Shown in pieces: positions 11,023-64,000 of a stretch of DNA of 64,000 nucleotides. Positions within the stretch are counted from its first letter, which is position 1. Each line of letters begins with the position of its first letter. Where the stretch lies: NCBI GenBank assembly GCA_051294375.1, contig CM119271.1, positions 13,259,039 through 13,323,038 of the forward strand, in the 5' to 3' direction. The translations under genes and the position numbers were made by a program. Source of the stretch: Paraspadella gotoi (taxonomy: Eukaryota > Animalia > Chaetognatha). A model generated the notes under the pieces. That model had not been told where the DNA came from and did no database searches. It was given only the letters and a program-made list of their open reading frames with translations.

Positions 11023-11696
11023 TTTTGTTTTCCTTTTTGTTTTGTTTTGTTTATTTTAAATTAGATACTTTTGTTTTCTTTTTATTTAAAAAAGTTTTTT
11101 TTAGTCAAACTTTTTTCCTTTGTTCTTTTTTTTTACTTGATTTAGATGATTTTATTTTCTATAATTTTTTTTTACTCATTCGTGTTTTTTGAACCGTTTT
11201 TTTTTTAATATATATTTTTATCTGTCAAGAATTAAGTAGTATATGTCAATTAAATTAAAGCGCGATAGCCTTAAATAAAACGATAGATTAGAAATTATTT
11301 GACGATGTAACAATTACGAATTTCTAGTTTTTGGATATTTTTTGTATGTTTTCTTTTCAACAACTTTAAATAATAAATTTCAACAAAATACAAAAACAGT
11401 GGATTAATTAAAAACAACTTGGATATATTTTCCAAAAGCGCCTCAATTCGAAATTTTTTAAGATTTAAAGATAAGTTAAGGATTAAGTAAAAGCTTAAGT
11501 TTAGGAAATAAATATAAGGTTTGTGATTTGGTTATTAAATAGAGTTTTCGATTAGGGTGTTTGGTAAAAGTGTTTATAGGTAGGCAATTAAGTTTTAAAA
11601 AAATAATTATTTAAATTCAGCTACAATTCTTTAACAGAAACGAGGCGTTTTCGGAAAATAGCCCCTACAACTTAAAAAACCTTCCTGCCCCATGCA

Positions 11697-13918: not shown

Positions 13919-14580
13919 TTTTTTTACAGCGTGGGAGGAGAGACACCTGGGATACTTTTCTGAATTTTTTTTTTTTTTCTTAATCTGAAAAAAAAGGGCA
14001 GCGCGACTTAGAAGTGAGGTAGAGCGAGCGTTAAAGAAAAGGTTCGATTTTGACATTTCAAAAACATTTGTGCGGAATAATACGGAGATGGTATTAGTAG
14101 TAATTATAGGAAAATATTTCATTTTGAAATGACCATAAGAATATTCTCGTTCATGCAAGTAGACGAAGCTGACTTTAAATCTGTGGGTAGTTTAAGAATA
14201 TCCCTCTGTGATCGATTTTGTGGGAAAATATCTGGTACAAAATTCGTGATTGGGTTCAATGAAAACGATCCCGATTTTTTTCAAAGTCTGTTCACGGTTT
14301 TTGTGAGTTGTGACTGCGGTGAATTCCCAAAAGCGTCGGCGTACACAATTTCAAAAAAAGTGGTTTGGTGAGGCAAGTATCCATTTTCCAAATCTCCGCT
14401 CAAAAAGACGATATCACATCAGTTATCTCATCAGTTTATCACATCAGTGGACGATTCCAAGTTTATTCACATCAAAATCTATGACAGTACGACATCCACC
14501 AGTTCGTGGTCGACTTCTGGACGCAATAACGAGCAAGTCTTGTGGTCGATTCGTGATCCTCGTCTGTGGATTCGGGGTCT

Positions 14581-16064
14581 TCAAAATTCGCACATGAAAT
14601 CCCTCGTCTTCCTATCGCACGGCGCGTTGGTCCAGGATCTATTGACGTTCGCTCCGCTGCCCACGTAAGCGAAGACGCATTCCCCGTGAGCCGTCGGGTC
14701 TAAAGGAAAAGGTTCGAACCAGGCGGGGAAGTCGTTGGGCAGGCGAGCGCCCGTAGAACCCCAGACGAACGATCCGGCGGAAGTTTGGAATCGGGCGTCG
14801 AGCCAGACGAAGGCCTGCGCCGTGGAAGTGGTCGTCATTTTGGTCTCGAGGAGTTGGAGGGCGGTCGACCACTCGGCCAGGGATTCGAAGGCCACTGGGG
14901 AGGCGGAGAGGCCTCTGGGAGACGGAGGGGGGGGGGGAGGAGGGGGAAATGTTGGGGGGAAATTAATAAATAGAGAAGTTAATAAATATAAATAAAAAAT
15001 AATTAAATCAATCAAATCAATCGATAAATAAATAAACAACGGAACAAGATCAATAAAATTCTGATAAATTATGACAAAAAAATGATTACTACAAAAACGA
15101 TCAAATGAAAACGACAGCCGATGACACTGACAGACGATGACACTGACACTTACATACGATGACATCGATGTCGCTTTCACCTGCACAACTCGTCCAGGTC
15201 TTCCCTCGTCGCCGCCTGATCTGACTCCAGCTTGATGTAGTAAGCGTCGTCGCCCGGAGGAGAATCTTCCTCTGTCGTGAGAGAATGATGTAGCGAGTAC
15301 GAAGACTGTTATTATAGTATTATTATAGTAATATTATAATAGTATTATTATGGTAATATATACTAGTAGTTATTTTTTTTATTTATTTATTTATTTATTC
15401 GTTTAATCTTGTAGACCTTCGTTTATGCCTTTGTTTTTTTAATGTATTATTTTATGTATATTAAGTCGTTAATTTAATTTATTTTTATAAATTCAGTTTT
15501 TAGTTTATATATATTTTATTAGTACAGTATTTATGCTTTTACTCATTCATCTATTCCTATTTTTTTTCGTTCTGTTTTGAATTTTACGTTCATTTATCAA
15601 TCAAATAATATATTTATTTATCCATTAAATAATGTATTTAGCTAACAATATTCAAACCTCTCTCGCAAAATTCTCCCTCGAAACCGGGACGACATCTGCA
15701 AATTCCGTCGACGCAATTTCCCAAATTGAAACAATAAACGAATTCGCAATCCCTTTGCTCGTTGAAGGAACCTTGGTTAAAGTTTATTTTAATTAATTTA
15801 AATATATTTAAACGTTTAATTACAAAATAGCGTTTTTCTGCGATGCCCGCGCCTCGTGCCGCATTCGGAAATGACCCACCAATGCTGCATGCCGCAAAAA
15901 AAGCCGCATCCCTCGTCTATCAATTCTCCCGAGCACACCTTTCTCTTCCCCGCACCTGGAGAGGGTTTCCCGCCGGATCTCGAGGACGCCGAATTGCAAG
16001 CGAACGAGAAACGAACGAAGACGAACAAAACGACGAACAAAATGACGAACAGATCGAAGAACAT
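14581..16064 (-). CDS. Secreted EGF + C-type lectin-like domain protein, paralog C
   Basis: Exons 16064-15956 (MFFDLFVILFVVLFVFVRFSFAC..), 15771-15658 (EGF CEFVYCFNLGNCVDGICRCRPGFEGEFC), 15271-15181, 14914-14581 (PVAFESLAEW..VWLDARF..CVFA..WTNAPCDRKTRDFMCEF*). Confidence 0.85.
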
Positions 16065-16380
16065 TTTCGTCGTTTTATTCAAGGCGGCGTCTCTTCGTCG
16101 CTAGGCAACGGGGCCGTCGTCAAGGATTTTAATCATAATTAAACATTTTTTTATGATCGTTTGAAATTCAACATTTTTTAAAAAAAACTTTATTGTTTAC
16201 GTTTGTTGTTTACTTTCAAAGGATGATAATATTTTTCACGCGATATTCCTTCTTTTTTAATGCGAACACAAAAACCAAATAAAAAAAGAATTTGGAATTT
16301 AAGCGTAAAAAAAGTTACGCTCCTTTTGCTGGAATTAACTTTTTCCCCAAATTCCCCTTCTCGCTTTTTTGTTTTTTTGG

Positions 16381-25190: not shown

Positions 25191-26190
25191 TGAGAAGAAG
25201 AGAGAGATGATAGGAATCCGGATGGAGATTGATTGTTTGATTGGTAGTTAATGGGTGAAAATGATTGAAAAGAAAATTATTGTTAAAGCAATTACCCCGT
25301 TACTGAGAGCATTTCTCATTTATTTCAACAAACCGAGCATAAAATATATTTACATACTAATGGAACGTAGTCAACGCTGTCAAAAAAAAAAAAATTGAAC
25401 GATATTTTCTTCATCTAACGGTTGTTCATTCCAAAACTAACTTTACAAACAAATTTTAAGACTAAACGATCTAAAAACATTAATTAATTTTATTTAAAAA
25501 AAAAAACTCGATTTGAATAAATATTTTTTTAATTTTTTTAAACCTAAATTTTTTTACTTTTCGATCGTGAGCGGATTACAATAAAATATTCATCGATGAC
25601 AACTGTATTACAATTAAGGCGTCACAGAGACAAAACAATTACGCGCGAATTTAGATAAATAATTAATACAAGGTTGCGCGCGGGTTTTTTTTTAGGTAAA
25701 TAATTAATACAACGTAGTAGATAATAATCAGTACAAACGATGCGATATCACTGTGGCAATTTGTTTTTTAAAAAAAATTATGAGAAAAATATGTAATTAA
25801 AACGAGTTAGTTAATATATATTTTTTTGTTGATTGCCAAACTAAGGAGAGAAATTTTTGGTTTTGGTTTTGTTTTCCGTTTTCCTTCGCTGTTCCATTCT
25901 CACCCTTGTTGTTGTTGTCGTTGTTCTTTTCTCTCTCATTTAGTCGGCATACTCAAAAACATAGAACATGGAAAAGTAAAAGAGAGAGAAATAGAAAAAG
26001 GGAAAAGAGAGAGAAAAAGTTGAGAGTCCAGCGTTTGACTTCAGCAAGAAAAAAAAAAGGAAAGTAAATGCCGTGATCTGATTGGCTCGTTCGCGCGTTG
26101 CCTTTTCTTTTATTATTGTGGGAGATTTAATGTTTCGATGTTGTTTTCGTTGTTGTTGTTGTTGTTTTTGTTGTTGTTGTTGTTTTCGGT

Positions 26191-29100
26191 TTAACGGTAT
26201 CTGGCCAATCTGTAGTTGACGTAGTGTTGCATCTGTGAGGAGAAAAGAGATTACGTTTAAAGTTAATTTAAAGTTTATTATCTAATTTAATTTAACATGT
26301 AGTTTATTGTAATATGTAGAAAACTAATATTTAAAAGCAGAATGCAAAATTACTTTCACCCACCTTGTAATAAAGCTTAAGTAGCGCTCCTTCCTCACCA
26401 GAAACCTGGATGATAATGTTTAAGATTAAACGTTTTTAATTGATCATTAAAAACTTGCTAATACCGATGCCATTAATTTTACAGCGGGTATACATTTCTT
26501 TAGGATTAAAATAAGTTCAAAATGTGAATATTTCCTATTAAAAAATAAAAAAAATATTAAATGTAAATGAATTAAAAATAAATAAATGATTAGATAATAA
26601 AAAAATCAATAGATAATGTTAGATAATATATAACTAATTATAGTAATAGATATTAACAAGGTCCTCACCCCGATTCCCTCGTTGGAGAGTCTCGCTGCCC
26701 TCATGAGTTCGGAGGTGATGGTCGATTGAAGCTCCTGTTAAAAAATATTTTTTTAAAAATAAACAAATAAACTAATAAGTTTAATGAATATTTTAGCTTT
26801 TTGCGGTTCACACATCGCACATCAACTGCAATTTTTAAAAAAAAAGAGTTAAACATAATAATATTGAAATCTACGCAATCAAATACGAAATAAATCTAAA
26901 TAAATCTAAATAAATCTAAACGAGGTTGAGGTTCAAATGAGCAGAGACCGAAAAAAAATTTCACCGCAAAAAAAAAAAGGAGAATTCGAAGCGAATTTCC
27001 CTGTAGACGGCAACCTCCATACAGTGTGGTCCCTTTTGAAAGAAATGTTCTTAGACCCACAAGTCATATTTAATTTTCTTTTTTAAACATTATAACATTT
27101 AAACATCTATGCTTGTTTTCTTTTTTTTTTAACGAAGGTTTCTCCGCGGTTTTTTTTTTTCATATAAATTTGTGTAAACGAAACAATTTAAATACTAAAA
27201 AGAAAAACTACTTTCAAACGCGAGACCATATCCAGAAATGTGTAACTATGTGTCGGCTCATTGAACCTTTTAACCTCTTACGCCACATTATATATTATAT
27301 TCACCGCATTTAATCATGAATATATATTAATATCAAATTACTTACATTCAGACATAGACGCTAAGAACCGTTCGTGCATCCATCTACATTGTTTGTTAAA
27401 CTGTGTTTTTTTTTTGTTTTGAAAGAAGAGGAAAACCAAAGGAAGAAAACATAAGGGGAAGTATTCTGTTTTTTTCTGTTTTTTCTGTTTTTTTTTTTTT
27501 TGTCTATCCCGACGATCGCGAACTCAAAAGGGCAGCACTTTGGGATTTCTAGAAGAATCCAACTGTCCGCGGATGAACTGTTGAATCAATGAGCGAGCAA
27601 ATATAAGGACAAAGATAAGGACAAAAATGAGACAAAGGACAACGACGAGACAAAATAGGGACAATCATAAAGACAAAGAGATGAGAAAATAAGTCCCTAG
27701 CTCATCTATGCCTGGTTCTACAAAATGTGATTTTTTTTTTTGGGAAAAAACAATAGCGACACCAAGCATTTCTGGATATTTTGGTCATTTCTGGTCATTT
27801 CTGGTCATTTCTGGTCATTTCTGGTCATTTCTGGATGCGTATATTCTAAAGTATTTTGAACGGTATTAGCGACTTTGTTTTTTGATATTTAAACTGTTTT
27901 TTATAAAAAAAAAAAATAATTGCAGGAGCCACCTTCCTTGCTTGCCTTGTTACGAAAGAACCAAGCATAGATGATATTTGTTTTATCTAGAGTTTAAAAT
28001 AAAAAAACAAATTTGAATTCTGAAGGAAGGTTGGCGACTTAATAGCATAAAATTAAAACCTGAAATCGGAAAAAAAAATCAATTAGGGTAAAAAAAATTC
28101 ACGGCATTTTAAAGTTTTGACTTTTGCTTCACAGAAAAGGGAGAAAACGGTGATGAATGCGAAGAGTAAACAAATAAGATGGTCAGTACCAATGTCCTCC
28201 TGAACTGCGAGCAAAAATCACGGAAAATTAAAATAAAACTCAGGAAACTTTGGAATATAAAATATCAATTTATTTAGTTGTATTTTGAATGTCATCTTCT
28301 GAACAATTTTCTGTGTCGTTTTTGTCCTATGAAAGACATTGATATCGTCGGACATTTACAAAAAGAAAGAGGAAACGTTGAGCAAACAATTCAAGAGTCG
28401 ATTTCATACCTAATATCGCAAAAGGTTAAATATTTCCTCGTCCAAATATGGAGGAGGAGGAGGAAGTTCAATTTCCTAATAAGGGGATCGTTCAGATATT
28501 TATAGGATTGACTTTATAACAATTTTGTCACTTTTCAGAAGGCATTGATATAACCCTTTTGAACTTTTTTGAAAAATATATGACAGAAGAGTGAGTGTGA
28601 GAGAGAGAGAGAGAGAGAGTTTATTTTTTTACTTATTCATTGATTTCAATCAAAGTATTTCTTCGTTTTGAAAATCTCTCCGTCAGAATATGGGGGAGGC
28701 GGGGGCATTTTTATGTCCTGTTTAGATAAGGTAAACAAACATTGTATCGCTTTGTAATAAAATTTAAATGAACGGGCAAAATTGAATCCCCTGTTTAAAG
28801 TTTTAGGTTTTCTTTATAACATAACAGTTTAGAAGATGTAAACTAACATTAGCCTCCTGAGTTTTATTATCAAAAAAACATTTTGATTTGATTTGAGAAG
28901 CAGAAGCAAAATTAAACTTAAAAATTAATTATTTAACCTGTTACAAAATAATAAAATTTAAAAAAAAACAAAAGAAATATTCTGTCTAATATCTATTAAA
29001 GCATAACGTGCTTAAAAAAACAAAAAAACAAAAGACGTTCTACTCACGGAGATGGATTGCCACATTTCGTGCTTCCCTCAAGAGTCTCGTGGCCGCTTTG

Positions 29101-30224
29101 TCGAGGCGACCAATCTCTTCGCCGATCGTGGAGATCTCGCCCTTCAACGCCACCTTGTAGCCCGGCCGAGATGGCGCGGTTCTTCAATCCGTTGTAGCCT
29201 GAAAATGGGGGGAAAGCGGTTTGTTGTATGGAAGCTTTAAAGACGTAAGGTGGCGTGACTTGATGTTAGAAACGTCTGCTTTAAAGTGGCCAGTATTGTT
29301 AATCTTTAATAATTTTCTTTCATAGCAACAAAGTCCCTGTACTAACAGGCACTGGCAACTCATTTCTATTCTCTCTCGCATGGGGCTTTCTCTTTATTAA
29401 CTAGAGCAGTCCTGCATGAACTTGTCCTTCATTGTGGCCAAGTCTCTTAATCTTGGCCTAAATAAACTCCCTACTCACCCGAGATGGCCTGCGTGAACTA
29501 GTCCTTCATTGCGACAAAGCCTCTTTATCTTGGCCCAAATAAACTCACTACTCACTCGAGTTGGCCTGCATGAACTAGTCCTTTGTGGCCAAGTCTCTTT
29601 ATCTTGGCCCAAATAAACTCACTTCTCACCCGAGCTGGCCTGCATGAACTCGTCCTTCATTGCGACAAAGTCTCTTTATTTTGACCCAAATAAACTCCCG
29701 ACTCACCCGAGCTGGCCTGCGTGAACTTGTCCTTCATAGCGGCCAAGTCTTTGCCGGCGTTGGTCTTCTCAATGGTCATCGTCTCCTTGGCGTTTCTCAA
29801 CTCGCCCTGGAGCTTGGTTCTCTCGGAGGCGATGGTCCTCTCCAGGTCGGAGAGGGCGTTGGCCGCTTGGACGTTGCGGTTCTCTATCTGTTTGATTTCG
29901 TCGGCGATTTCACCGGTAGTGGCTCGCTCCTTCTCGGCGGCGGCTTTGGTGGTTTCCAATTTCTGTAAAGGTAGGCGAAGGGCAAGGTAAGTTAAGGTAA
30001 GGAGAATGTGAGATGGGGAAGCCAGAAAAATCTTCGTCATTTATTTGTATATGATCTCGGAGTGTTGGCTTTTGGCTGGAATACTATGTTGTGACAGTTC
30101 GATATTTGCTGTTGCTATTAGTGTCTTAACTGTTGCACCAATGTTTTTGTGTGTGTGTATCGCCGACTGTCTCTCTTTCCCGCCCTCTCTTTCTCTCTCC
30201 CCCTCTTTTCTCTCTCTCTTCCCT

Positions 30225-30300
<76 letters not shown>

Positions 30301-33300
30301 TCCCCCTCTCCCCCTCTCCATCCCTTCCCCCCTCTTTCTCCCTCCCACTTCTTCTCACCTCCTTCAGTTCCCTGTTGATCTTCTGCACGGCCTCCCGCTC
30401 TGCGACCTTGGAGTCGAGTAGAGCCTGCAACTTCTCGAATCCCTCGGCCATCATCTTTCTCCTCTCCTCTTCCTCCTTCTTCTTGCGGATCTTGGCCCCC
30501 TCGGAGGTGACCAACATGTAGAACTGGTACCTGGAATTGGTCCGGGAAGAAAGGTTTTAATTGGTCGTTTGATTGATTGATTGATTGATTCATATTGATA
30601 AATTGGCGACTCGAAGATCCATCGATGATTGATAGATCGATAAAGAAAATAACTTGTTCGCTTGTCTTTTTTAATTTAATGCTATTGATTGCTTGATTGA
30701 TAGTTTGACTGACTGACCAGCAATATCTGTCCGATTTATAAATTCACTGATTAATTAATAGTTTAATCAATTAATCGCCAAATTGTCAGTTTATAAAATT
30801 AAAACAATCAATAGATAAGTTGTTGAGTGATTGAAATAATGAGTGAGTGGTTTAATGGTTGATTTTTTTTGGTCTTAAGATTGATTGATTGATTAGTTCA
30901 TTTATTCTTTGATTAATTAATTGATTGATTGATTATTTTTTTTATTGATTGATTGATTGATTGATTGATAGCCTGATTGATAGATTTATCAATCAATCAA
31001 CTCACCATTTCCAGTTCTTGCACTTGTAATAATTCCTGATGTTGTTCTGGATGGAGGCGATGGCCCTCTTCTCCGCCGCCTTCTCCTTGTAAGTCACGGC
31101 GACGAGACACTTGCGGATGTGCGCCTGCATCTTGAGGACGATGACGGAGAGGGCGCTCTCGCGGATCTCCTCCAGTTTGGAGAGGCGACCCGCGCGGAAC
31201 ATGATCTGAGCGACCGCGGGGGATAAAAAAAAATTCTTATATGAAAATTGACAGTTTTATGATTTAAAGAAGTAAATAAAAATAATTGTTTTTTATTCTT
31301 CGAGTTTTAAGTAATGATTATTTACATTTATGATTGTTTTCCGTGTATTTTAAGGAAACGATCGTATTAATATAAAAACTTTCTGCCGTAAGTTTTTTTC
31401 TGTTTTTGTACCGCGAAGAATTTGGCGTTAATTACCAAAAACGCGCCATTTCGGAATTAAAGGATTAAAAATAAATATTAAGGTTAAAATTAAGTTAAAA
31501 TTAAGTTAAAGTTAAAATTAACAATCTAAATGGGTCGCTCTCCGAAAATAGTGCCGTCCTTACCTCTTCCTCGCCCTTTTTCAAACCCACCTTGGTGTGT
31601 CCAGTACGGAAATCGTCGGGGTCCATCCCGGCGGCGGGCAACGCCTTGTTGGCGCATGACTTGGGGTCTCCCTTCATGTCGGCGAAGATCTTGGGCTGCA
31701 CGATGGAGTATCTGGCCATGAAGTCGGCGTAGGGAACTTTGTTGGGCAGACCCAACATGCAGATGCGGATGCCTGAAGAAAAAGTCGTTTTTGTCGTTAT
31801 TGTTGTTGTTGTCGTCGTCGTCGTCGTTTTCGAGAAGCGAACAATAAATGAATTCGAACTCGCAGTCATTAAAACGAGCAAAAAAAATTATTTTTTTGAT
31901 CAACGGATGAATCGATTAATCAACCAATCAATTAATCAACCAATTAATTAATCAATAAATAAAGAAATAATTAACTCAATAAATTAATCCGTCAATGAGT
32001 CGATCAATCAATCGATCAATTAGCCAATCAAATCCATCAAATCTAATAAAATCAAATCAAATCAATCAATCAATCAAATCGATCAATCATCAAATCTATC
32101 AATCAAATCATATAAAATGCACCTTCCAGCACTCCGTTGCAGTTGAGTTGATGCATGACCAACGGGGCGTCGATGTGACCCGACTTCTTGATCTCGTTGG
32201 GGATGATGCAGCGGACGAAATGAGGATGAGTCGAGTGCAAGTTGGTCATCAGCTTCAGGAGAGACTCCCTGGGTGAGTCAAGAAAAAAGGTAAGTTAGGT
32301 AAGGATTTTATACAAAAACGTTTGTTAGTTGTTTTATAGTTAATATTTTTGATAACCCGAACGCTTTCTTGAACAAAAATTCCAAATCTTAACTTTTCCA
32401 ACTTGCCAAGCAATTAGGTTTAACAGTGAAAGCTTGCAGGATGCTGATATGTTAATGTGATGGAAGCTTTAAATCACCAAAGCCTGTACAAAGTCTGGGG
32501 CATGATAGCTTATTTATTAAATGAATGGATTATTTTTAAATTGATCGCACCAAATTTCACGACTTCTCCCAAATGTTTTTTTCCAACTTAAACATTCCGA
32601 TCATAAAAATCTACAACATTATTCAAGATTCACTTTTTCAAACGAAGCCTCGACCATTCACGACCACATAGCCCGTCCCCAATGACCGGAGACCCACAAA
32701 TGCCACCCACAAATTCCCACGCCTCTCGATACGAACCTGTGGGCGGCGGAGATGGTCATCATAGAGGAACCCTTCTTCTTCTCTCCAGTCTCTTGGAAGA
32801 CGAGAGCAACGACGGCGTTGGTGGCGCCTTGCATCATGTTGATGACGGCGTCGTTGACGGGATCCTGTGGGGGAGTGTGGTTGAATGGAGGGTGTGGTTG
32901 AATGGAGGGTGTTGTTGAATGGAGGATGTGGTTGAAGGAGGGTGTGGTTGAATGGAGGATGTGGTTGAATCGAGGGTGTTGTTGAAGGAGGATGTGGTTG
33001 AAGGAGAGTGTGGTTGAAGGAGGATGTGGTTGAAGGAGGATGTGGTTGAAGGAGGGTGTGGTGAACGACGAAGATGATGACAACAAAGAAGATGACGAAG
33101 ACATAAAAAAAAGAATGAAGACAAAAAAGACGATGACGACGACGAAGACGACGTCGATCAAGACATGACAAAAGGAGACTATTTTGACGAAAATGACGAA
33201 GAAGGAGAAGATGAAGTTGACAATGATGACAGCGATAAAGTTAACAATGACATCGACGATGGCGGAAAAGATGATGACAAAAACGAAAATCGCAATGACA

Positions 33301-36300
33301 ATGACAGCGATGTAGATAACAATGAAATCGACGATGGCGGGAAAGATAAAGACAAAGATAAAACCGAAAATGGCAACAAAAAAAAAACAAAAAATGCTTT
33401 AGATTTTTAATTCTGAGTAATTAAAAATCTCATCAAAGATTAAACTGAAAACTAAATTAAGAATGTTATTTTAACGGTTTAATCCTACTCTAAAATATAA
33501 TTATTAATTTGAAATTCAATTAAAAACCCGAATAAAATTTGTTTTACTTTAAATGTGTAATTTTAATTTAATTCCTACTTACGTTTCGACTGTACAATCC
33601 TATTTAAATACCAACCTTGTTCTTGAACAACCAGCCGGTGACGTTGTAACCGACAGTACCGGCGTAGTGGTAAACCTCAAAGTGAGCCTCTGGCTTGCCC
33701 TTCTTGGCCGGCTTGGGCTTGCCGAAGGAATCGTGCTTGCCCAAGTGCTTGCCAATGAGCTTCTCGAGATAGGTCTTGTCTGTGGCCTTGGGCACGATGC
33801 ACTCCTCCTCCAACATGGAGAGGAGCCGCATCTTTTTCTCGATCAGCTCGATGGTCTTCACCAGATTCATGCCAAAGTCGATGAAGGCCCATTGGATGCC
33901 TTCCGCCTTGTACTCTTCCTGCTCTTGGACGAACATGTGATGATTGAAGAACTGCTGCAGCCTCTCGTTGGTGTAGTTGATGAGGAGCTGCTCCAAAGAC
34001 GTTGAGTTCGAAGATCTCGAAGCCGGCAATGTCCAAGACGCCGATGAAATGCTTCCTCGGGTTGGGCGTGTCCAGAGAATCGTTGACCAGGCGGACGATC
34101 CAGTCGAACAGGCGAGCAAAGAGGGACTTTGAAGTGGCAGAGACAGAGAATGCCACCTGATCGACATTCTGTCCTTTCTTTACGTAATCCTTGCCGACCT
34201 TCAACTTTGGCTTCATGAAGGTGTCGACGAAGAAGTCGGGGTCGATGCCGAGCAGGCTAGCGCATGACGTAACTTGGTCCATGCCATCAGGCTCTGCCTG
34301 CTCTTCGCGACCCTTTTGCTTCCACTTGGCGTTGCCCAGATGGGCAATTGCAATGGTGGCTTTGTAGCAGCCTTCCTTGTCGGGCTGAGAAAAGCCCAAA
34401 GTGTCCAGGGCAGTGTCAGTGGCCCTCATTTCCTCGGCATCGTCCATGCCAGCGACGGTCAGCACACCCTGGCTGATGAAGTAGTACTGGCCAGGATCGG
34501 GGTTATTTGACAGGCCGCACATGGATGGTACTGTGGGTAAGCGTTGGTCATCAGCTGGTAGAAGATGTGGTAGTTTCTCTCGATCTCCAGCTGAGAATGT
34601 GATGCGGGATTTTCTCCAGCAGGTAAGTTTCGATGTCGGCTGAGGCGATCTTCATGTTGGGGCCGAAATGGATACGGATGAACTTACCCTAGTGGAGAAA
34701 AAAAAACAAAGAGAGGTATTTTAGATGGTGTTTTGCCGATTGGTTTTTTGTTTTTTTTTCACGAGCCTCATATCTAATGTCATTTTAATATTTTGTATTT
34801 ATAATTTTAAATAGGAATACTTTTTTTTTCCGATAATCATGTTAGTACGCAAAAATTGAATAGAAGTATATCTGTTGCCTTTTAACTTAAGTACAATGCA
34901 GTAGTATTTTTAAAAATAATTTAGCTAAAAAAGCGAGAAACAGAAAAAGAGCCACATAATTATATAGAGAGTTGACCTAACTGCTGGTAGACCTAAAAAA
35001 TTATTAATAATTACGTTTTTGTTTTTGTTTTCATATTTATGTTTTTGTGGTTTTTGTATTTGCGTATTATTTAAAAAAATATTAGAAATTCTGGTGTTTA
35101 TTTAAGTGGCGTCATCTTCGGTCATTCACGTCTTCAATATTCTACTCATGTCATTTCATGTCATGACAACTCACGAATCGAGAAGAGTTGTTGTTTCTGA
35201 CTGTCTTGGCATTGCCGTAAGCCTCCAACGGAGGGTTAGCCTGGATGATCTGCTCTTCAAGAGACCCGGCGTTCTCGGAGGTGGCGGCCTTGGACTTGGC
35301 GGCGTTGGGGTCGGCGCAGTTGAGGGCGTAGTACTGCAACACCTTCTTGGTGTTCTCAGTCTTCCCGCTCCTGACTCGCCGGTGATCAGTGAGGACTGGT
35401 TCTTGTGCTCTGGTGAATTGGAAATGTGAATGATAAATAAATGGTAACTATTATAATAATGATGAGTATAAAAAATATTTTTTTACAGGTTATATATCTT
35501 ATGAGCCAAAACCTAAAGAGAGAAAAAAAAAAAACCCGAAAATTATAAAACAAAATTGTTTTCATGTAATAATTTAAACTTACAAATTTACAAACAACTT
35601 CTCCCTCTATAAGTTTGTTATAACTTTGACAAAGAATATTACAAATTTTTACAAATGTTAAATATTACAAATTTTTACAATTTTTTACCAAATTAAAATA
35701 AGAAATGTAAACAGCAACTTTTATTAATGTTTAATTTACGTTTGCTTTTTTATTCCATCCCAACTCAGCCCTAAATGATTCTAGCGACCTTACCCACAAT
35801 TCAACTCACCCATTTCCAAGAATTGCAAGGCCCCGTCAGCGATGGCGTACAAATGCGGCGGCGCCTCGTTTCTCCTCTTGTTCCTGTAGAAATCTCTCAT
35901 GATTGGCGTGTAGACCATGAGCCACTTGTAAGGGTTGATACAGATGCAGAAGAGGCCAGAGTAGGTGTAGATCTGAAGGACCTTGTAGCGGGTCCTCAGG
36001 TTGTGAAGAACGCAAGCTTTGTTCAAAACGGACAGGTTGGACATATCCTCTTCCTGAAAAAGGAAAAGAGTCGTAGTTTGTTTGTAGGTATTCTAGGTCA
36101 TTAATTTGTAAAGATAAAATATATTATAAAGTCACTATTTTTACATTGTAAAAATTTATTATAATTATTGTCAATTCGAAAATAAAAATTTTATTTTGAA
36201 TTTTAAATCAATGAGACATCAAACATATTAGATGAGTTATATACATTAAATATATTATGTAAGTAAGACGTTAAAGACATTAAATGAAACATTGAATACA

Positions 36301-36815
36301 TAAAATAAATTTTAAAAATTGATTATTTTTACATTGTAAAATTAAATATTTTTAAATTTTAAATAAATAGGGCAATTTTTACATCTTTTGTCAATTTAAT
36401 AATAAAAACATTTATCATGCTTCCCTCATTTTTTTTCCTTCTAAACTAAGAACAAAAAAAAATACTTTGTTTTGTTTACCGACGTAAACAAAACAAAGTA
36501 ATTTTTGTTTACGTCGAATCTTTTGTTTACCTTTTCGAATTTTGGCGGGTTTCTCTCCAAAACTTCCGCCTTAGGCAGAGTCTTTACTTCGTTCTTCGCC
36601 GTCTCGACTTCGATTGTCTCCCCGTTGTCCTAAATGAAATAATATTGATCTCCTATTCGTTTCTATTACAAGCAGCCGTAGTAGTATCTACGAAATATGC
36701 CATAACTCGTCACCATCAAACAATAAAACAATAGTCTAATCTATAAATCCATCAATATCTCGAACAATTAATAAATCTATTAAAAATTCAATTAATAAAT
36801 AAATAAATCGATAAT

Positions 36816-36847
<32 letters not shown>

Positions 36848-37289
36848 CCAATAATCAATTAATTATTAGATATCAAGTAATCTATATCTAAAAATCAATC
36901 TAAATGAAACAATTCTATCAAAACATCAACAAATAAATGAAAAATAATAGGCAATAAATAAATTAATCAATTAATATCCATCAAGCGATCAGTATCTTAC
37001 CAGCAATAAATGTGAATGAATCACATAAAGTGCTTTATTAATTAATTAATTAGTTTATTTATGAAGACTCACCGATTTGACTTTTGCCTTGATGAAAACT
37101 TCCTCCACATCCGACACCCATCGTTCAGTCTGAGTGAGAGGGAGACAAAAAGGAGATGAAAGGTCAACATAACTGGAAAAGGAGGAAAAAATATAGAGAG
37201 GGAGAGGAATGAAAGAAAGAAAAAAAAAGGAAAAGAAGGAAAGAAAGATGGGTCAACAAGATGGGACCTAGAGAGAGAGAGAGAGAGAG

Positions 37290-37356
<67 letters not shown>

Positions 37357-37590
37357 AAAAAGCAAAATAGATACTAGATAGAAAGAAAGATAGACAGATA
37401 GATTGATAGATACCGAGATAGATAAATAGATAGATACCTAGATAGAAAGAAAGATAGATAAATAGACAGACCGACCGACCTTAGCGTCGAAAGGAGCGCT
37501 TCTCTCCTTGAGGAGCTCATTCATTGGACTCTGCAGCCACAACCAATCAGGATGGTTGGGCGAAAGACGTTCCTTCTTCTTATCGGCCAT
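26191..37590 (-). CDS. Mhc: Class II myosin heavy chain-like protein with short tail (myosin A)
   Basis: Exons 37590-37480 ([37 protein letters not shown]), 37129-37073, 36629-36531 (NPPKFEK), 36053-35810 (IYTYSGLFC), 35409-35175 (GESGAGKT, NNNSSRF), 34688-33616 ([27 protein letters not shown]), 32864-32737, 32268-32123 ([17 protein letters not shown]), 31772-31591, 31205-31006 (2 IQ), 30530-30359, 29962-29707, 29198-29048, then candidate 26734-26669, 26405-26364 and 26232-26191 (stop). Several 1-bp indels must be assumed, and the terminal exon choice is inferred. Confidence 0.9.
28410..28475 (-). CDS. Candidate alternative terminal exon of myosin A: [21 protein letters not shown]
   Basis: ccttattag acceptor, phase 0, 22 codons to TAG, immediately followed by a gtatga donor; protein-level similarity to 28646-28717. 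Confidence 0.6.
   Translation of the reverse strand, partial: EIELPPPPPYLDEEIFNLLRY
28646..28717 (-). CDS. Candidate alternative terminal exon of myosin A: [23 protein letters not shown]
   Basis: ctaaacag acceptor, phase 0, 24 codons to TGA; homologous to 28410-28475. Confidence 0.6.
   Translation of the reverse strand, partial: DIKMPPPPPYSDGEIFKTKKYFD
29400..29750. repeat. ~70-bp tandem repeat derived from the myosin exon 3' end and splice donor (~5 copies)
   Basis: Unit ggcctgc(a/g)tgaact(a/t)gtccttcattg..ccaagtctctttatcttggcccaaataaactc...actcacccgag; the last copy is the real exon end. Confidence 0.88.
32875..33062. repeat. 16-17-bp minisatellite (tgtggttgaa[t]ggagg[a/g]) abutting a myosin splice acceptor
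   Basis: Direct reading; produces the spurious QPHPP ORFs. Confidence 0.9.
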
Positions 37591-39215: not shown

Positions 39216-39433
39216 TCTTTCTTCTCATTCCTCTCCTCTCCCTCAACATTAATCCCTCCGCCAAAAAAAAAAAATGAGTTAAAGATTTCCCGCATTATAA
39301 ATCCACGCGATCCTTTTTCTTTTTCTCGATCAGTTCCTCGTAACACTTTCCTCTCTACTCCTCGGTTACAATCCCCCGAGAATCGTCATCCGCTCGACTC
39401 GAATAGCNNNNNNNNNNNNNNNNNNNNNNNNNT

Positions 39434-45075: not shown

Positions 45076-46078
45076 TGATTTAATTTGGGGTGGGGTAATC
45101 CCCGAGAGTCTTTAGAGGGAGAGTCACTGACCCATGTCGGTCATCAAACTGCTGGGAGGAAACTTATGTATCTCAAGAAACGCTTTTATATTTATTTAGA
45201 ATGGTTAAAAGTTTGAGTTTAACTAGATGATTCATAATAATAATAAAATACACGTAATCGCAAAAAAATGATAACTATGTTAGTCATGTACAAGATAGTA
45301 ATATATTGGAATTGGATAATGCAGGCCTGATAATGGAGGATGTAGGAATAGAATAGAGTGTCGCTCTCGAGGCTTTATTCATTTTACACAGTATTGTAAT
45401 GACTCTTTTTGAATCTAATTATCGAGAAGGCACACGGAGAAGGGTGCGGACGTTAGTTCGGAGAATGAGAGGAAGTGACGTATTCTGTCATAGTCTTATT
45501 TTCCCTTCTCTCCTGGCTGCTGTCGGGCATTGTTCTGAATCGAGAACAGTTCGGGTCGTCACAGCGTCTGTGCTCTTCTCTGCCTTCTGTGACTTAGTCG
45601 ATCTACTCTCGTGCTAGATCACGTGGAAGAGGGATATGCGCAGAAAGAAGTCATGCTTCTCGTCCTCGGGCCTCTTCTGGACGTATACATCAGTTTCTCC
45701 TGGCTAGATCTCTGAGTGGATCGGTTCCCGTAGTCTAATATGTACACGATCTCTCATCTCTCGTTTCCTCTATGTCTCTCAGTGCTCGTCTCTCTCTCTC
45801 GTGCTCTCTACGACTCGGCTCTCCTTTCTCCGATCACGACAAAAGGTAAAAGAGGATCTATTGGAGTCGAGGATGACGATTCTCGGGGGATTGGTAACGC
45901 GAGGAGTAGAGAGGAAATGGTTACGAGGAACGATCGAGAAAAAGAAAAAGGATCGCCGGGATTTTATAATGGCGGGAAATCTTTAACTCATTTTTTTTTT
46001 TGGCGGAGGGAAATTTAAAGTGTTGAAGGGAAGAGAAGAGAGGAAATGAGAAGAAAGAGAGAGAGGAGAGAAAGGAAG

Positions 46079-55847: not shown

Positions 55848-55992
55848 TATAAAAGGGAGAAGCCGAGAGCCGGCGTTCACTTCAGCGCAAAGAAAGCTTA
55901 GAGAAATCTATTCATCTTCCCGCGGATCTTTAAGCTTCTGATTGGCTGTCGTCCGCGCAAAGTAACCGAGAAACATCTTCCGATCGGAAAAG
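55848..55992 (+). promoter_or_regulatory. Putative core promoter (TATA + Inr) and non-coding first exon of myosin B
   Basis: TATAAAAG at 55848-55855, TCACTTCAG with the A at 55879 (31 nt spacing), and an aag|gtagt donor at ~55992. Confidence 0.6.
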
Positions 55993-56714
55993 GTAGTCGA
56001 CGATCGGGTTAATTAAAGGATTTCGCCGCGGGAGGGCCGGACGGGATTATTTCTTCGAAAAAAAGAATCGGGAGTTAGGAATGTTATGGCCGGAATTTTG
56101 TACGTTAACGAAAATGTCCGGGATATTGCGAAGATAATGTCGCGGGAATTTGCCCGTTGAAACGGCGCGGAATTTGGGAAACGGCCCCGAAATGGCCGGG
56201 ATTTTTTAAACCCGGGGGGAAAAATTTTGACCAGTAAACGCCTTTTGAAATCGTTTCCGGCAAGTGGCCGCATCTAGAAAACTTCCGGATCTGTCCCGAA
56301 GTATCTCTCTGTCCCATCCGTCCGTCTTTTGATTTCCCTTGAGAGCCAAACTTTTTTTTCCGCGTTTTTTGATTAAGTTTTGAAGTTTTTGTTGCAAGTT
56401 AACAAATTCAAGAATAACAAAGTCAAACGAATTTACGAAAAATAACCGACGTTAGTTTTTGTCTTCTTTTTTTTAATGATATAATTTTTAAAAAAAACAT
56501 TTTCTGAATCATCTGCTTCCGGTTTTCTTGCGCGGACTAAGATCGTCTTCTTCTATGTTTTAACTTCATTAGGCGAATATATACAAATATTTTATTTTGA
56601 ACTTAAAACAAAAAAGATAACAATCAAAACAATCAAAATTTTTTTTCCCGCATTTATTTTTTTCGTGACATCAATGTCTCCTTCATCGAGCAGAATCGGC
56701 CCTCGGACTCCAAC

Positions 56715-59700
56715 ATGGCCAAGGAACGCCCTATCCCCGAGTCAATCCCGATTGGATCTGGCTGCAGACCCGCCGATGAACGAGCTTCCTCAAGGAAGGA
56801 GCGACGCCCTTCCGACGCAAAGGTGAAGGGACGAGAAGGGTGAAGGGGGGGGTGGCGCCGGGGAATTGAATGGAGACGCCAACAGTCCGGCGCCGTAAAT
56901 GGTCGAGGTTTTGCCGGAAATTTCGAAAGCGGGATGCAATGGATTAAATCGAAATCATCGTTTAATTTAAAATTTTATTCCAATATTGAAAATTTTACTA
57001 GATTATATACATAAAATATCATCAAAATTTTGAATGATACTTTTATCATTTTAATGATAACTTTAAAAAGATTTTATATTTTGTTCCGTCTAAAGTAGAA
57101 ACAATTTTATTAACGATGCAATAAAAATGTAAATCATCTAAAAAAGCAACAATGAAAATCGTAAAAACTATTTATAAATTATTTTGATGTTTCAAATTTA
57201 AAAAAAACCAAAACATCTGAGATTTACGATTTTATTTTATTTCTTTTATATTTCTTTCCTAATTTTCTAAATTGTCTAAATCTTACATTAATATTTATCA
57301 ATTACTGAGAATGGGTGCTTGGGGTTTCGTCTTTCTGGAACAATGGAACACTATAACAAGGATGGAATTAGTTTCTAACCTTTGATGACCCCCAACTAAC
57401 ACAACAAACCGCCCCCCCCATTAGACCGCGTGTTGGGTTAGCGGATCCGGAGGAAGTCTAACATCAAAGAAACCATAAGCAAAAGACCAAGGAGATCAAA
57501 AATGCGAAAAAGTGGCAGACGGCGAAGAACACTGTCGTCACGTGCCCAAGGCGGAAGTGTTGGGATGAGGAATCCGCCCAAATTTGAGAAGGTTAATTTT
57601 TTGGGGATTGATTGGGTAGAACTGATTGATTTATTTGATTGATCGTTTGCGTCAGAGGTGATCGATAGATTGATGATTTGATTTAGTGATCGAAACGAAA
57701 CGTTTAATTTTTTTTTTTATTGATATTAAAAATTATGCTAATGTGGAAATTCGATACGTAAAAGTTTTAGATTTTAATCAAATTTATTTGTCAAAAATCA
57801 AAGCATAAAATTGGTATCGATATTTCGAACTAATGAACAATCTCAAAAATAAGAGTAATAATGTTATCCCCCCCCCCCAGGAAGAAGACATGTCGAACTT
57901 GTTCCCGTCCTCAACAAAGCCTGCGTTCTCACACAATCTGAGAACGCGTTACGAAGTCCTTGCAGATCTACACCTACTTCTGGCCTCTTCTGCATCTGTA
58001 TCAACCCCCTTAACAAAGTGGCTCATGTTGTACAACTCAGGTCATGAGAGATTACTACAGAAACAAGAGAAGGAACGAGGCGCCGCCGCATTTGTACGCC
58101 AATCGCTGACGGGGCCTTGCAAATTCTGGAGAGGGTGAGTCCAAAGGAAACAATGAAATGGAGGTCGAATAAAGCCTTGCTTCAGAAAAACTAATAATGA
58201 AAGACTATTTTTTTTTTTAAATTTATTGCAAAGTTTTTTTTTGATAGTGTTTAAATTTATTTTGAATTTTAAAAAATATTTTTTGACAGTTTTTTTTTTT
58301 GGCCTCCACTAAAACTGTATTAATTTTTTAATCTTTGGTTAGACAATTTGAACTACAATCATTGTAATATTAAATGAAATGTGCAAAAAGTGTGCAAAAA
58401 AAAATAATATAAACGACTTTTTTAAACCATCTTAATTAAAACATGTATCAATGGACAAGAGCCAGCAAGAACCAGTCCTCACTGATCACCGGCGAGTCAG
58501 GAAGGCGGGCCAAGACTGAGAACACCAAGAAGGTGTTGCAGTACTACGCCCTTCAAACTGCCCGGGCCCGACCAACGCCCCCCCCCCCGGGCCCCCCCAA
58601 GTTTTTCCAAGGCGGCCAAGTCTGAAAACGCCGGGTCCTCTTGAAGAGCAGATCATTCAAGCCAACCCGCCGTTGGAGGCGTATGGCAACGCCAAGACTG
58701 TGAGGAATAACAATTCCTCAAGATTTCGTAAGTAGTTTAAAGTATGCCAAAGTGTTGGTTAAATAGATTACTGAAAATCATGCATTAATCAATTTTATAA
58801 AAAAATCAATACAAAAAATTAAGTTATTGAAATAAAATTTAAATTTCTAAGAAACTTTCAAAATAATTTGTTAAACTATTTCAAAACTATTTTTAATATT
58901 AAAATATATCATTTTTATTCAATTTACATATTTGTACTTTCTATTTTTTCGTTCTCCTAATATTTTTATTGTTTAAAATTGAATTATAAACGTTAAAATC
59001 TTCCACTAGGGTAAGTTCATCAGAATCCATTTCGGCTCCAAACATGACAGATCGCCTCAGCCGACATCCGAAACTTACCCTGCTGAGAAGTCCCGCATCA
59101 CATTCCAGCTGGAGATCGAGAGAAAACTAACCACATCTTTCTACCACCGATGACCAAATGCTTATCCCTCAGTACCCCACCAGTGCGGCTTGTCAGAAAA
59201 GCCCTGACCCGGCAGTAACTACTTCATCAGCCAGGGTGTGCTGACCGTCGCTGGATGGGACGATGCGAGGAATGAGGGCCACTGGACACTGCCCTGACAC
59301 TCTAGGGCTTTACTCAGGCCGACAAGGACGCTTGCTAAACAAGGCTACCATCGCCATCGCCCATCTGGCACGCGAAATGGGCGCCAAAGGGTCGCGAAGA
59401 ACAAGCAGAGCCCCGACGCATGGACGAGGTCATTCTTGCTCAGCTGGCTCGGCATCGACCCCGACTTCTTCGTCGACACCTTCATGAAGCCCAAGTTGAA
59501 GGTGGGCAAAGATTTCGTGAAAAAAGGTCAAAAGTGACCAAGTGAATTTCTCGTTTCCGCCACGAAGCAAAATCTCTCTTCGCTGTTTTTTTCGATTGGA
59601 TCGTCGCGTTGGCAACGATTCTCTGGACACGACTATCTCTGTCTCGCCCAATACCCCGAGGAAGCATTTCATCGGCGTCTTGGACATTGCCCGGCTTCGA

Positions 59701-62700
59701 GATTTCTAGAGCTCACGTCTTGGAGGCAGCTCCTCATCAACTACAACCAACAGAGGCTGAGCAGTGTTCTTCAACCATCAACATGTTCCGTCCAAGAGCA
59801 GAAAGAGTACAAGGCGGAAGGCAATCCAATGGCCTTCACATCGACTTTGGCATGGATCTGGTGAAGACATCGAGCCTGAATCGAGAAAAAGAGGGCGTGC
59901 TCTCCATCTTGGAAGGAAGAGTTGCATCGTCCCAAAGCCTCCGACAAGAACCTTCACTGGAGAAGTTGAATGGGGAAACATCTTGGGGAAGCACCAATTC
60001 TTTCGTGAGCCGAACCGCCGAAAAAGGGTCAACCCCGAGGCCCCAACTTTGCTCTGTTCATTACGCGCCCCGGCGTTGTTGGAATACAACGTTACTGGTG
60101 GTTGGTTTAAGAAATAAGCGTCAGTTTCAAATACTTCTCATGGCGTTTATTCATTCATTTATTCGTTCTCTAAACTTTTAACGTTTCAATTATTTCAATT
60201 CATTCATCATTCATCATCATTTCATTCATTCCATTCATTCATGCGCCATTCATTCATTCATTTTTTATTCATTTAATAAATTCTCAACTTCATTCATTCA
60301 TTCACGACTTCACATTCATTCATTCATTCATTCATTCACTCATCACTTTTATCTTCAGGAACCCCGTGAACGAGGCCGTCGTGAACATGATGCAGTCCGG
60401 CCTCCAATCAAGTTCGTGGCCCTCGTCTTCACCGAGAAGGACCACCGGTGAAAAGAAAAAGGATCGGCGCTCATGACATCTCAGCCGCTCACAGAGAATC
60501 GTTCACAAACTCATGAACAACTGAACTCGACTCACCCTCACTTCGTCAGGTGAGGTTGGATGAGGCGGGGGGTAAGGTCAAGGGAATAAACTAAGTTGGT
60601 CTGAATCTTTGGAATGGTTTTAAATGGTGAAGTTAGTTATCGTCGATTTGTGAATGAGTTCAAGCGTCTCAATTATGAGACATGACGTGACGTGACAAGG
60701 CATTTTAAAGAACTGTTTTCTGTCATTTTAGTGAATAGAAAGTCAAATTTTTTGAGACAAAGTTTGGTTCGCAATATAAATTTATCCGCATTCGAAAAGA
60801 TTCGTGGTCAAACATCTTTTTGGTGATGTGAAGGATAAGTTCTTAGGTCGGTAAAGTGACCTAACCTGAGATAATCGTGGCATAGCTTTGTAAATTTTAT
60901 TGACCTTGTTATTTATCTTTTGCTTATCGATTGATTTAATCGTATTTTAGATGCATTCAATTCCAACGGATCAAAAATCTGGTCCACATCGACGCTCGCT
61001 TGTAATGCAATCACCACCTGCAACGGAGTGCTCGAAGTAAGTTTATTCGTTTTCGAATTATTAGAAAGTTGAATGTCCAAAGCAGTGTTGTATTACTATT
61101 ATAACGAATGAAAATATCCAAATGGTTATCCAAGAAAGAAATGTTTTAAACCATGATGTTGTAATGTATCATCTTCTATATCCTTTCCCATAATGAAAAT
61201 GTAGCTTAATAATTTTATACATTTGTAATTGTTAAAAAATAAAAAAAGTCTTTATTGGTAATAATATTTAAAAAAATTTTTACCAATTTTTGTTCAAAAC
61301 CTTAAACGCCTTCATTTCACACAAGTCCGTACATGTACGGCGTACACGTCTCACCATGTCTCACCAATGTTCCCCCACCCTTCAGGCATCCGCATCTGCA
61401 ATGTTTGGGTCTGCCCAACAAGGTGCCCTAACTCCGCTTCATGGCGCGCTATTCCATCGTCGCCCCAAAAAGATCTCCGCCGACATGAAAAGGACGACCC
61501 CAAAGGGTGTGCCAATAAGGCTTTGCCGCCTCGGGTCTCGACCCGATGATTTCAGGACAGGGCACACTAAGGTTTGATTCTTGTCTTTGTTTCTGTCCTC
61601 TCTCTGTCTCTCCTCTCATCTCTCTCTCTCTTTTCTCTCTCTCTCTCTCTCTCTCTCGTTCTTTCTTAATTTCTTTTCTCTCTCTCTCTCTTTTTTTGTT
61701 TGTCTCTCTCTCTTTCTCTCTTCTCTCCTCTCTCTCTCTCTCCTCTCTCTTCTCTCTCTCTCCATCTCTCTCCTCTCTCTCCTCTCTCGTTTTTTCTTAA
61801 TTTCTCTCTGTCTTCTCTCTTTTGGTGTTTGTTCTCTTCTCTCTCTCTCTCGTCTCTCTCTCTCTGTCTCTCTCTCTCTCCTTCTCTCTCTCACTCACCT
61901 CCCAACCCACCGACGGTTGATGTTCCGCGCGGGTCCGCCCTCCAAGCTGAGGAGATCCGCGAGGAGAGCCCCTCTCCGTCATGTCCTCAAAGTGCGCGCG
62001 CACATCGCAAGGTGTCTCGTCAGCGTCACCTACAAGGGGAAGATAGCGGAGAAGAAGGCCATCTTCTCCCATTCAGAAAACATCAGGAATTATTTACAAG
62101 ATGCAAGAAACTGGCCATGGTGAGCGTTAAATAAAAGAATCGACCAATCAAACTAATAATCAATCATGAGAAGAACTGATCAATCAAAAAAAAACAAATC
62201 ATTGAAACAGCCATTCAATAAATCGACCGATTGAAGCTTTTTTTTTTATGCAATAACAAATAACAAATAAATCAAAATCAATTCAATAATCTATTGGCCC
62301 GAATCAATCTATTCTTCAACCAATAAAATAAATTAAAATTAAGACCAACATTGAATAAATCATCACCGGTTCAATCAATCACTCGAATTATTATCTATAA
62401 ATCAATTGTTGGAAATCTCTGCACAACCGACCCATATTGATTAATTCAAACGTTGGATCGTAAATGATCAAACAAACCAATCAATTAGCAAAAATCTACT
62501 GTTAAACCGAAAATCATCAAACAATCATTTAAACAATCAACCTTATCGCCATTTCTTAAATTATTAATCAATCATGCGAAAAAACTGACAATCAATCAAA
62601 CAATCGGTTTGAACAGCCATCAATAAATCGACATGAATTGCTCTTTTTATTCATTCATAACGATTCGTCAGTCAATCGCTAATTAAATCGTCCAATCGTA

Positions 62701-63599
62701 GACTCAATCGACCAATCAATCAATCACAATCTACCACCAGTTCTAGCATGCTGGTCGTCTCGGAATCGGCCAAGATCCGCAAGAAGAAAGGAGGAAGAAG
62801 AGAGACGCCGATGAGGCGCCGGGTTGGAGAAGCTCAAGGCTTTCTTGGAAAGGAGAAGGTCCAGGGGAGGGAGAAGGTGCAGAAGGTCAAACGACGGACT
62901 CAAAGGGTGAGTTAAAGAGCGGGAAGGTCGTGGGTAAGATCGTTGTGTTGTTGTCCATCTGGCGAGGAGTGGAATAGCGATGCTGGCGCTAAAATTGGAT
63001 TAATATTATTCGATTCAAAGCGAAATGGAATTGTTTTTTAAAAAAAAAAATTTCCAGTCAATGAAAGTAAAAGAGAGAGGTTTGTGTATAAATACTTAAA
63101 CTGAATCGTAAGTATTCGAGTATCCACAATGAATTGTAATTCGTTTAGAGTTCTTCCAAATGCTGCAATATGCAAATTAAATGAGTTGCAAGGTTAAATA
63201 AATACTTCATCTCCTTTCAGGATTGAATGATGATATCTACGTCCTCTCTCTCTCTTCTCTTCTCTCTCTCTCTCTTCTCTTCTCTCTTCTCCTCTCTCTC
63301 TCTCTTTCCCCTTCTCCTCCTCTTCCTCTCCACCTTTTCCAGAAAGCCGCCTCCATCCGCGAGGAGCACGCCCGCGAGCTCAAGTCAGCGGCGCCATCGC
63401 CACCGACATCAAATCCTTGGACACGAAGGCCGCCAACGCCGCCGTCGCCCTCACGGATCTCGACGCGGACCATCGTGGCGGAGAGGAACAAGTTGACGAG
63501 CGAGTTGAAGGCACGCCAAAGGAGGTCATGAGTCAGGACCAAGGTCAACATGCAGAAGGAGTTGGCGACATGAGGACAAAGTGGCGCAGCTTCCGCGAG
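56715..63599 (+). CDS. Mhc: Class II myosin heavy chain-like paralog (myosin B), 3'-incomplete in the window, many indels
   Basis: Exons ~56715-56822 (MAKERLSP..PDWIWLQ), 57425-57591, 57881-58134, ~58460-58727, 59010-~60118, 60359-60549, 60951-61036, 61386-61571, ~61917-62119, ~62733-62906, 63343-63599. Colinear with myosin A, but introns are unrelated and synonymous sites differ. Confidence 0.85.
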
Positions 63600-64000
63600 G
63601 TAAGGGGAATGGATGGATGATGGATGGATGGATGGATGGATGATGGATGGAGGAGGATGGATGGATGGATGGATGGATGGATGGATGGATGGATGGATGA
63701 AGGAATTTAATTAATGAATGAATGAATCAATGAATGTATAAAATATTAATGAATAATAGATAAACTAATGAATCAATCAATCAATCCCTCAATCATTCAA
63801 TGACTGAAAAATTAATTAATGAATGATTGAATAATTGAATAAATATATTGAAGAACAAACGACTCCATTATAGAATTTTAAAAATTATAAAACATAGTAT
63901 TTAACAGTTGGGTTTCTTTCTTGGGGCTACAGTGTGCTCCTGTGTAGTACAAAGAATCACATTGTCTTTAACGTCTGACGACGATTACAATGAGCGACTT

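Follow-up and report, generated by a model that had tools for sequence, protein, structure and literature searches.

A short striated-type myosin II gene of the arrow worm Paraspadella gotoi with five alternative C-terminal tails, two of them bearing PPPPPY

In a 64,000-nucleotide stretch of the Paraspadella gotoi genome (hereafter the window), two mini-exons encoding PPPPPY lie just downstream of the last coiled-coil exon of a myosin gene, raising the question of what kind of myosin would carry such ends and what they might do. The gene, short myosin A, runs on the minus strand from 37590 to 26191 and encodes a motor, a neck and a rod of ~187 residues, followed by five alternative ends. Its shared body (29048..37590, minus strand) is made of 13 coding exons that specify an SH3-like N-terminus, the motor, the neck and the ~187-residue rod. 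Using the database protein P0031 as a tblastn query, all body exons are matched, the motor exons mostly at 73-96% identity, and the mRNA contig L001 is 75% identical to the body at the nucleotide level. Several single-base indels separate the body from L001, some of them in motor exons; these are likely assembly errors. We infer that the indels in myosin A and in the neighbouring copies are unpolished long-read errors, because the neighbouring copies are far worse than myosin A. The last common exon (29048..29198, minus strand) is shared by all five ends and has its donor at 29048, with GTGAGT next. The earlier note had the two mini-exons follow it in phase 0. As assembled, the exon measures 151 nt against the 155 expected from L001 and has no single open frame; it is 4 nt short relative to L001, near 29163, 29160 and 29076, and with these restored it ends in phase 0, a phase judged via homologues and not via polished reads. 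Eleven database proteins continue past the anchor at this point with a Val, as read-through of a GT donor would give. Upstream, about four tandem 78-nt copies at 29400-29750 duplicate the end of the rod exon 29962-29707 including its donor, and these units put extra GTGAG donor-like copies in the intron.

Both mini-exons are present on the minus strand as the earlier note had read them, each with AG directly before it. Tail a (28646..28717; 72 nt, 23 residues) has 8 a-type counterparts in the database and tail b (28410..28475; 66 nt, 21 residues) has 5 of b type. Aligned over their first 16 codons, the two agree at 33 of 48 nt and at 11 of 16 residues; 7 of the codon differences leave the residue unchanged and 5 alter it. 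The likeness is confined to frame 0, and readings of either exon in another frame were therefore rejected. PPxY occurs eight times in the six frames of the window, PPPPPY only at exons a and b. When the 2.86-kb tail region was resampled with a first-order model and read in three frames, PPPPPY appeared in none of 2000 resamples, and at least two PPxY appeared in 6 of 2000. AATAAA or ATTAAA is found in the tail region at 28625, 28274, 27314 and 26114; a and b, or c and d, may be alternative acceptors with a common 3' end instead of having separate polyadenylation sites.

The splice from 29048 into tail b (29048 to 28475) is seen in X1, one of two sequencing runs found with matches here. An X1 contig of 313 nt lies on 28190-28475 without mismatches or gaps, and its 27-nt loose end equals 29048-29074 letter for letter, that is, the end of the last common exon. 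The junction rests on one contig at a depth of 5.3, its short side of 27 letters being below the 31-letter bridging mark. An AATAAA at 28274 lies downstream of tail b, and transcribed sequence from b reaches at least 28190. The RNA nature of X1 and X2 is a guess, neither being on record as RNA, and the assembly and X1 may share one source. In the search for runs, X1 had a share of 0.27 and X2 of 0.07; on the compared stretch, which takes in a, b and 540 bases downstream, X2 gave only short repeat-like matches. The earlier note had named two junctions to look for, and the X1 contig supplies the second; the first, 29048 to 28717, has no cover in X1 or X2, which is uninformative either way, and exon a rests instead on the 8 database a-type tails that follow the same anchor.

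Two PY ends are real, as the earlier note had it, but its list was incomplete, for tails c, d and e use the same donor. The donor at 29048 serves five acceptors in the order a 28717, b 28475, c 27577, d 27400 and e 26734. Tail c (27524..27577, minus strand; 17 residues) is AG-preceded and in frame 0, was located by tblastn of homologous tails and has 39 database proteins; LPF stands at the C-terminus of 37 family proteins. Tail d (27338..27400, minus strand; 20 residues; 38 database proteins) is identical to homologous tails at 16 of 17 residues. Tail e (26191..26734, minus strand; 49 residues; 38 database proteins) is spread over exons 26734-26669, 26405-26364 and 26232-26191, with an open frame, GT-AG borders and tblastn support, and is predicted to form a helix-turn-helix. 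Tails c, d and e may also be read as IQ-like or as PDZ ligands. The mRNA contigs L001 and L002 both end in tail e, with a stop codon and 3' UTR. Of 175 candidate stretches in a scan of JGI contigs, 2 were confirmed; both look like mRNA and have tail e, so that the scan shows the exon cluster of no other species at the genomic level. The 3' UTR that follows tail e (25650-26110, minus strand) has two blocks, neither of them a repeat, in common with the L002 UTR; one is 73% identical over 108 nt, the other 74% over 87 nt, and they may be conserved UTR elements.

That one donor serves several acceptors is supported by the b junction, the one of the five seen for the window gene, and, in a relative, by all five tails on one body. 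The 1017-residue body is identical in P0019 (tail c), P0021 (b), P0022 (d), P0023 (a) and P0027 (e), and a second rod end, of 120 aa, likewise occurs with all five tails. Among 194 family proteins, a set that includes a last search seeded with a PY tail, we counted 39 c, 38 d, 38 e, 8 a and 5 b tails, together with 11 Val read-throughs, 10 other or truncated ends and 45 proteins with no anchor. In the 159 proteins examined before the PY-seeded search, 10 of the 98 classified a-e tails are PY tails, which makes them a minority class. Queried with one rod exon, the databases gave 62 proteins from 543 candidates, all from jgi or merc and none from NCBI or UniRef; merc we take to be a marine plankton metatranscriptome catalogue. 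The PY-seeded search returned 58 proteins, of which 35 were new; all 35 carry the family anchor, and the 58 include no outside donor for the PY exon. In the ESM Atlas, the whole protein led to generic myosin clusters only, and the tail to leads below 0.9. These database proteins come from mixed-community assemblies in which chimeras are possible: P0061, P0107 and P0281 mix a-type and b-type halves and may be such assembly chimeras. P0291 has a d-type tail continuing into e-type, and P0242 runs out of frame through other sequence into d-type; both could be additional splice forms, in which c and d would have a terminal exon in common, or else chimeras of assembly.

The frameshifting indels of the window copy, together with a degraded duplicate and assembly gaps in the window, are what one would expect if the locus were a broken or mis-assembled ordinary myosin II whose tail exons are chance or pseudogene remnants. 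We consider this very improbable, given 42 open full-length short proteins, two mRNA contigs with a stop codon and 3' UTR, the X1 junction, the resampling result and the conservation of all five tails in relatives.

By sequence, the motor is that of a striated-type class II myosin. In a PDB search, squid, scallop and beta-cardiac myosins scored 874-976 bits versus 685-701 for smooth and non-muscle myosins. The full-length family members (n=42) span 1010-1068 aa; all 42 have the P-loop, switch I, switch II and SH1-region motifs, and 41 the relay motif. Pfam Myosin_N is above cut-off in 5 of 5 scanned short proteins, and Myosin_head was also found. As to the two light-chain-binding sites of a myosin II neck, the Pfam IQ model gave no match, though the neck aligns gap-free to named myosins. 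Myosin_tail_1 is found in 0 of 6 full-length short proteins and is present in P0150, a JGI protein of 1908 aa with a complete rod. The rod of the short family corresponds to residues 831-1017 of P0021, ~27 heptads. It is collinear with the start of S2 of P0150 and of named myosins and stops ~175 residues into S2, with insertions of ~4 and ~14 residues relative to P0150. The proline at the head-rod junction is absent from all 99 family sequences compared (one has Pro one position earlier), versus its presence in 110 of 120 long myosins. The rod is Ala-rich, and its a/d hydrophobic repeat shows register shifts; given these features and the loss of the proline, its dimer geometry is uncertain. 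Structure prediction from a 17-row alignment, covering neck, rod and tail e, gave an almost wholly helical model whose hinge lies at 183-187 and which has a turn within tail e (mean pLDDT 76; pTM 0.27, at which relative positions are unreliable). At the start of the rod, 30500-30440 on the minus strand, a Lys/Glu/Arg-rich run follows the site of the proline lost in the family and presumably resembles a short single-alpha-helix lever extension.

Judged by this rod, short myosin A is not a conventional filament-forming myosin II. In non-muscle myosin 2, assembly-competence domains are described at the far end of the rod (PMC13438149), and all five isoforms would be unable to form ordinary thick filaments because the distal rod with these regions is absent. 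The suggestion that PY tails take the place of filament assembly in their own isoforms is not supported: the whole gene is without the light-meromyosin rod, so all five isoforms are without the normal assembly region. Short chains might still join filaments by pairing or co-assembling with the full-length myosin, or by means of the helical tails d and e; the proline run of a and b would then mainly end the coiled coil and block assembly. Tail e is indeed predicted to be helical and to continue the rod helix, d and e are frequent tails with counterparts in distant paralogues, and alternative tailpieces alter filament assembly of smooth muscle myosin (PMC2173570). Set against this, the rod has diverged from the S2 of P0150, and insertions of the sizes given above would hinder in-register pairing; a simple helix stop also leaves the invariant Tyr, Asp and Glu of the PY tails unexplained. 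We regard co-assembly as unlikely.

The reading that we prefer, at a probability of about 0.47, is a filament-free short motor in which each tail would tether the molecule to a different partner, the PPPPPY tails to group I WW domains. A striated-type myosin II cut after ~187 rod residues would be spliced to one of five C-terminal tails, giving a two-headed motor that is predicted to be unable to build ordinary thick filaments, whichever of the five isoforms is made. A motor without hold on its neighbours would need another anchor to do work, and five conserved tails are obvious candidates; for tails a and b, likely partners would be cortical or Z-line scaffolds with group I WW domains. Such a molecule would presumably dimerize, hydrolyse ATP, stay out of filaments and be tethered within muscle, in the PY isoforms by a WW protein. 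In muscle, PPxY-WW contacts link dystroglycan to dystrophin, and dystroglycan is also associated with Kibra and Yorkie (PMC6971923).

The PY tails themselves bear on what they would bind. The 13 database PY tails (10 distinct) have I2, L4, P5-P9, Y10, D12 and E14 invariant and I15 and F16 in 12 of 13, so that the core I-x-L-PPPPPY-x-D-x-E is unchanged throughout. These tails, 8 a-type and 5 b-type, follow the same anchor. The earlier note's reading of a and b as duplicated, coding, alternative last exons of a short class-II-type myosin is supported, and the Tyr of PPxY is invariant in 13 of 13. The PPxY motif, the group I WW ligand, is found in the short terminal segment of both window exons and all 13 database tails, and in the last 60 residues of 0 of 120 long myosins.

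NEDD4-family ligases recognise PPxY, and the PY tails could be degradation tags that recruit a WW-HECT ligase of this family, making the a and b isoforms short-lived rather than tethered. An invariant PPxY in a short terminal peptide is consistent with a degron, as is the rarity of the PY isoforms (the rarest classes, at 10 of 98 classified tails). That rarity was counted on transcript-derived proteins and is silent on protein half-life, and the conservation of I2, L4, D12 and E14 (with I15 and F16 in 12 of 13) and the keeping of two copies exceed what a minimal degron needs. A degron role therefore appears improbable to us. Alternatively, the tails could bind the EVH1 domains of Ena/VASP proteins, tying the motor to the growing ends of actin or to sites of adhesion, with the Tyr incidental or regulatory. 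The EVH1 consensus is [FWYL]PxΦP, with LPPPP as a ligand, and acidic flanks and extra prolines raise affinity (PMC8789275). This pattern, acidic flanks included, is matched by window exon b and by every one of the 13 PY tails from the database; extra prolines are present in the tails as well. Window exon a fails it, having Met for Leu, and the Tyr after the prolines is invariant though the consensus does not require it. This Tyr and the Met of window exon a appear to favour WW over EVH1; the LPPPP core, the extra proline and the acidic flank would keep an EVH1 reading alive, which we rate as rather unlikely.

Striated myosin II (squid, scallop, human MYH7 and P0150) has the same SH3-like N-terminus, motor motifs, neck and start of S2, but a rod of ~1090 residues, about six times the ~187 here, where Myosin_tail_1 and the head-rod proline are missing and five unrelated short tails follow. 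Heavy meromyosin and the 25-heptad laboratory constructs, which we take to be heads plus a short S2, are like the short family in form; they are artificial, whereas here a diverged ~27-heptad rod with its own C-terminal motifs is naturally encoded. Alternative C-terminal exons are described in Capitella and Lottia Mhc, on a full-length Mhc (PMC3912159); here they sit on a truncated rod, number five and include two with PPPPPY. Smooth muscle SM1/SM2 likewise differ in an alternative tailpiece after a full rod (PMC2173570), unlike the truncated rod here. Catchin and the Drosophila myosin rod protein are partial myosin II products of invertebrate muscle, with a rod and without a motor (PMC3912159), the mirror of the short family. 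In Toxoplasma MyoB/C, one gene gives spliced alternative tails that set localisation and solubility (PMC2198869); these are class XIV myosins with two tails of unrelated sequence, so the likeness is a functional analogy only.

Among the matches listed by full-text literature searches there was no account of a comparable short myosin II or of a PPxY myosin II tail; older work on chaetognath muscle ultrastructure and biochemistry could mention one. A eukaryote-wide myosin census includes no chaetognath in its main text or species table (PMC5583752), and the chaetognath genome paper uses the word 'myosin' 0 times in its main text and three of its supplements (PMC12460157). In the Spadella atlas, 'myosin heavy chain' marks muscle cluster 1 and 'myosin-7' cluster 2, with structures not given, and its supplements could hold these genes (10.1101/2025.01.31.635879). 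Myosin II is known as a filament-forming motor, with catchin and myosin rod protein as described headless products; these literature searches brought up no natural, conserved family of several genes in which the head is kept and the filament-forming rod lost. Taken by themselves, the PY exons matter less than the truncated family that contains them. Heterosarcomeric secondary muscle, and A and B fibres, are among the characters of chaetognaths (PMC4254178). It is conceivable, if doubtful, that a family of filament-free myosins II with plug-in tails is the basis of the heterosarcomeric secondary muscle of arrow worms, pulling actin from membrane or Z-line anchors; the plug-in set would consist of two PY tails, one LPF-ending tail and two helical tails. 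In a chaetognath, the short family would offer named molecules and isoform-specific epitopes for these odd muscle types, and a single motor with five tails is a natural test case for how short linear motifs redirect a motor of muscle.

We also considered the origin of the family. Among proteins longer than 1814 aa, P0150 is 74% identical over 84% of the query, and named myosins are at most 54% identical (best 120 of 7994). Over motor and neck, P0150 and the short family share 78% identity, against ~48-56% for named myosins, and together they form one long-branched clade with support 100. In motor trees, built without a non-muscle outgroup, this clade lies beside a nematode in FastTree and has an open position in IQ-TREE, on a long branch. 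The P0150 rod is sister to bdelloid rotifers, with UFBoot 86 under LG+F+G4 (21 of 22 rows, one dropped for a short alignment) and 97/97 under LG+C20 (13 of those rows), in trees that are without chaetognath, monogonont rotifer or annelid references and in which P0150 is flagged for odd amino-acid composition. Grouping of this rod with molluscs was rejected (p-AU 0.0003). Chaetognaths are related to gnathiferans, rotifers included, and have many genes expanded by tandem duplication (PMC12460157). Taken with the merc source of the family proteins, these findings probably place the lineage among the arrow worms.

A profile search of 1.84 billion representatives returned 52 proteins, the distant ones being further short myosins or their exons. 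Inspected by eye, several distant relatives have d-like or e-like ends and several a Val read-through at the same anchor; PPPPPY is found in 0 of 51 proteins new in this search. P0239-P0280 are distant short-rod paralogues, several of them with ~25-50% identity to P0021; they show the family to be divided into several subfamilies, which have d-like and e-like tails of their own. The donor position and tails d and e are probably old in the family and the PY pair younger. A duplicate of the lineage's full-length muscle myosin would have lost its distal rod; the helical tails d and e would have come first, because relatives of both occur in distant paralogues, and a PY exon later, followed by its tandem duplication.

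Other parts of the window hold a second myosin gene, a partial copy of the first and two further coding regions. The paralogue, myosin B (55850..63600, plus strand), is oriented divergently to A and indel-ridden, with 80% nucleotide identity to A over 1138 nt of the motor; its rod exons give blastx matches to short-family rods, and for its last common exon and its tails one would have to look past 64000. A TATA-like element is found near 55850, and 55927-55966 matches the L001 5' UTR (88% over 41 nt). Trans-splicing as a phylum marker was dropped from consideration, since the 5' end of L001 matches genomic sequence upstream of myosin B and is therefore uninformative. At 39430-45078 on the minus strand the 5' half of myosin A is present once more, in a much-gapped copy of 91-92% identity that falls to 69% before it stops at an N gap at 39408; this copy is likely a duplicated haplotype or a raw read in the assembly, not a gene. 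Exons at 9100-16100 (minus strand) encode, in a repeating arrangement, EGF-like domains and C-type lectin domains (PF00059; a match above cut-off and a weak one); the product of this lectin-EGF gene is likely secreted or exposed at the surface. Finally, a 133-aa open frame at 6577-6978 (minus strand), which has no Pfam match, contains hydrophobic stretches and an ESFPQ motif that, we presume, recalls XK-related proteins.
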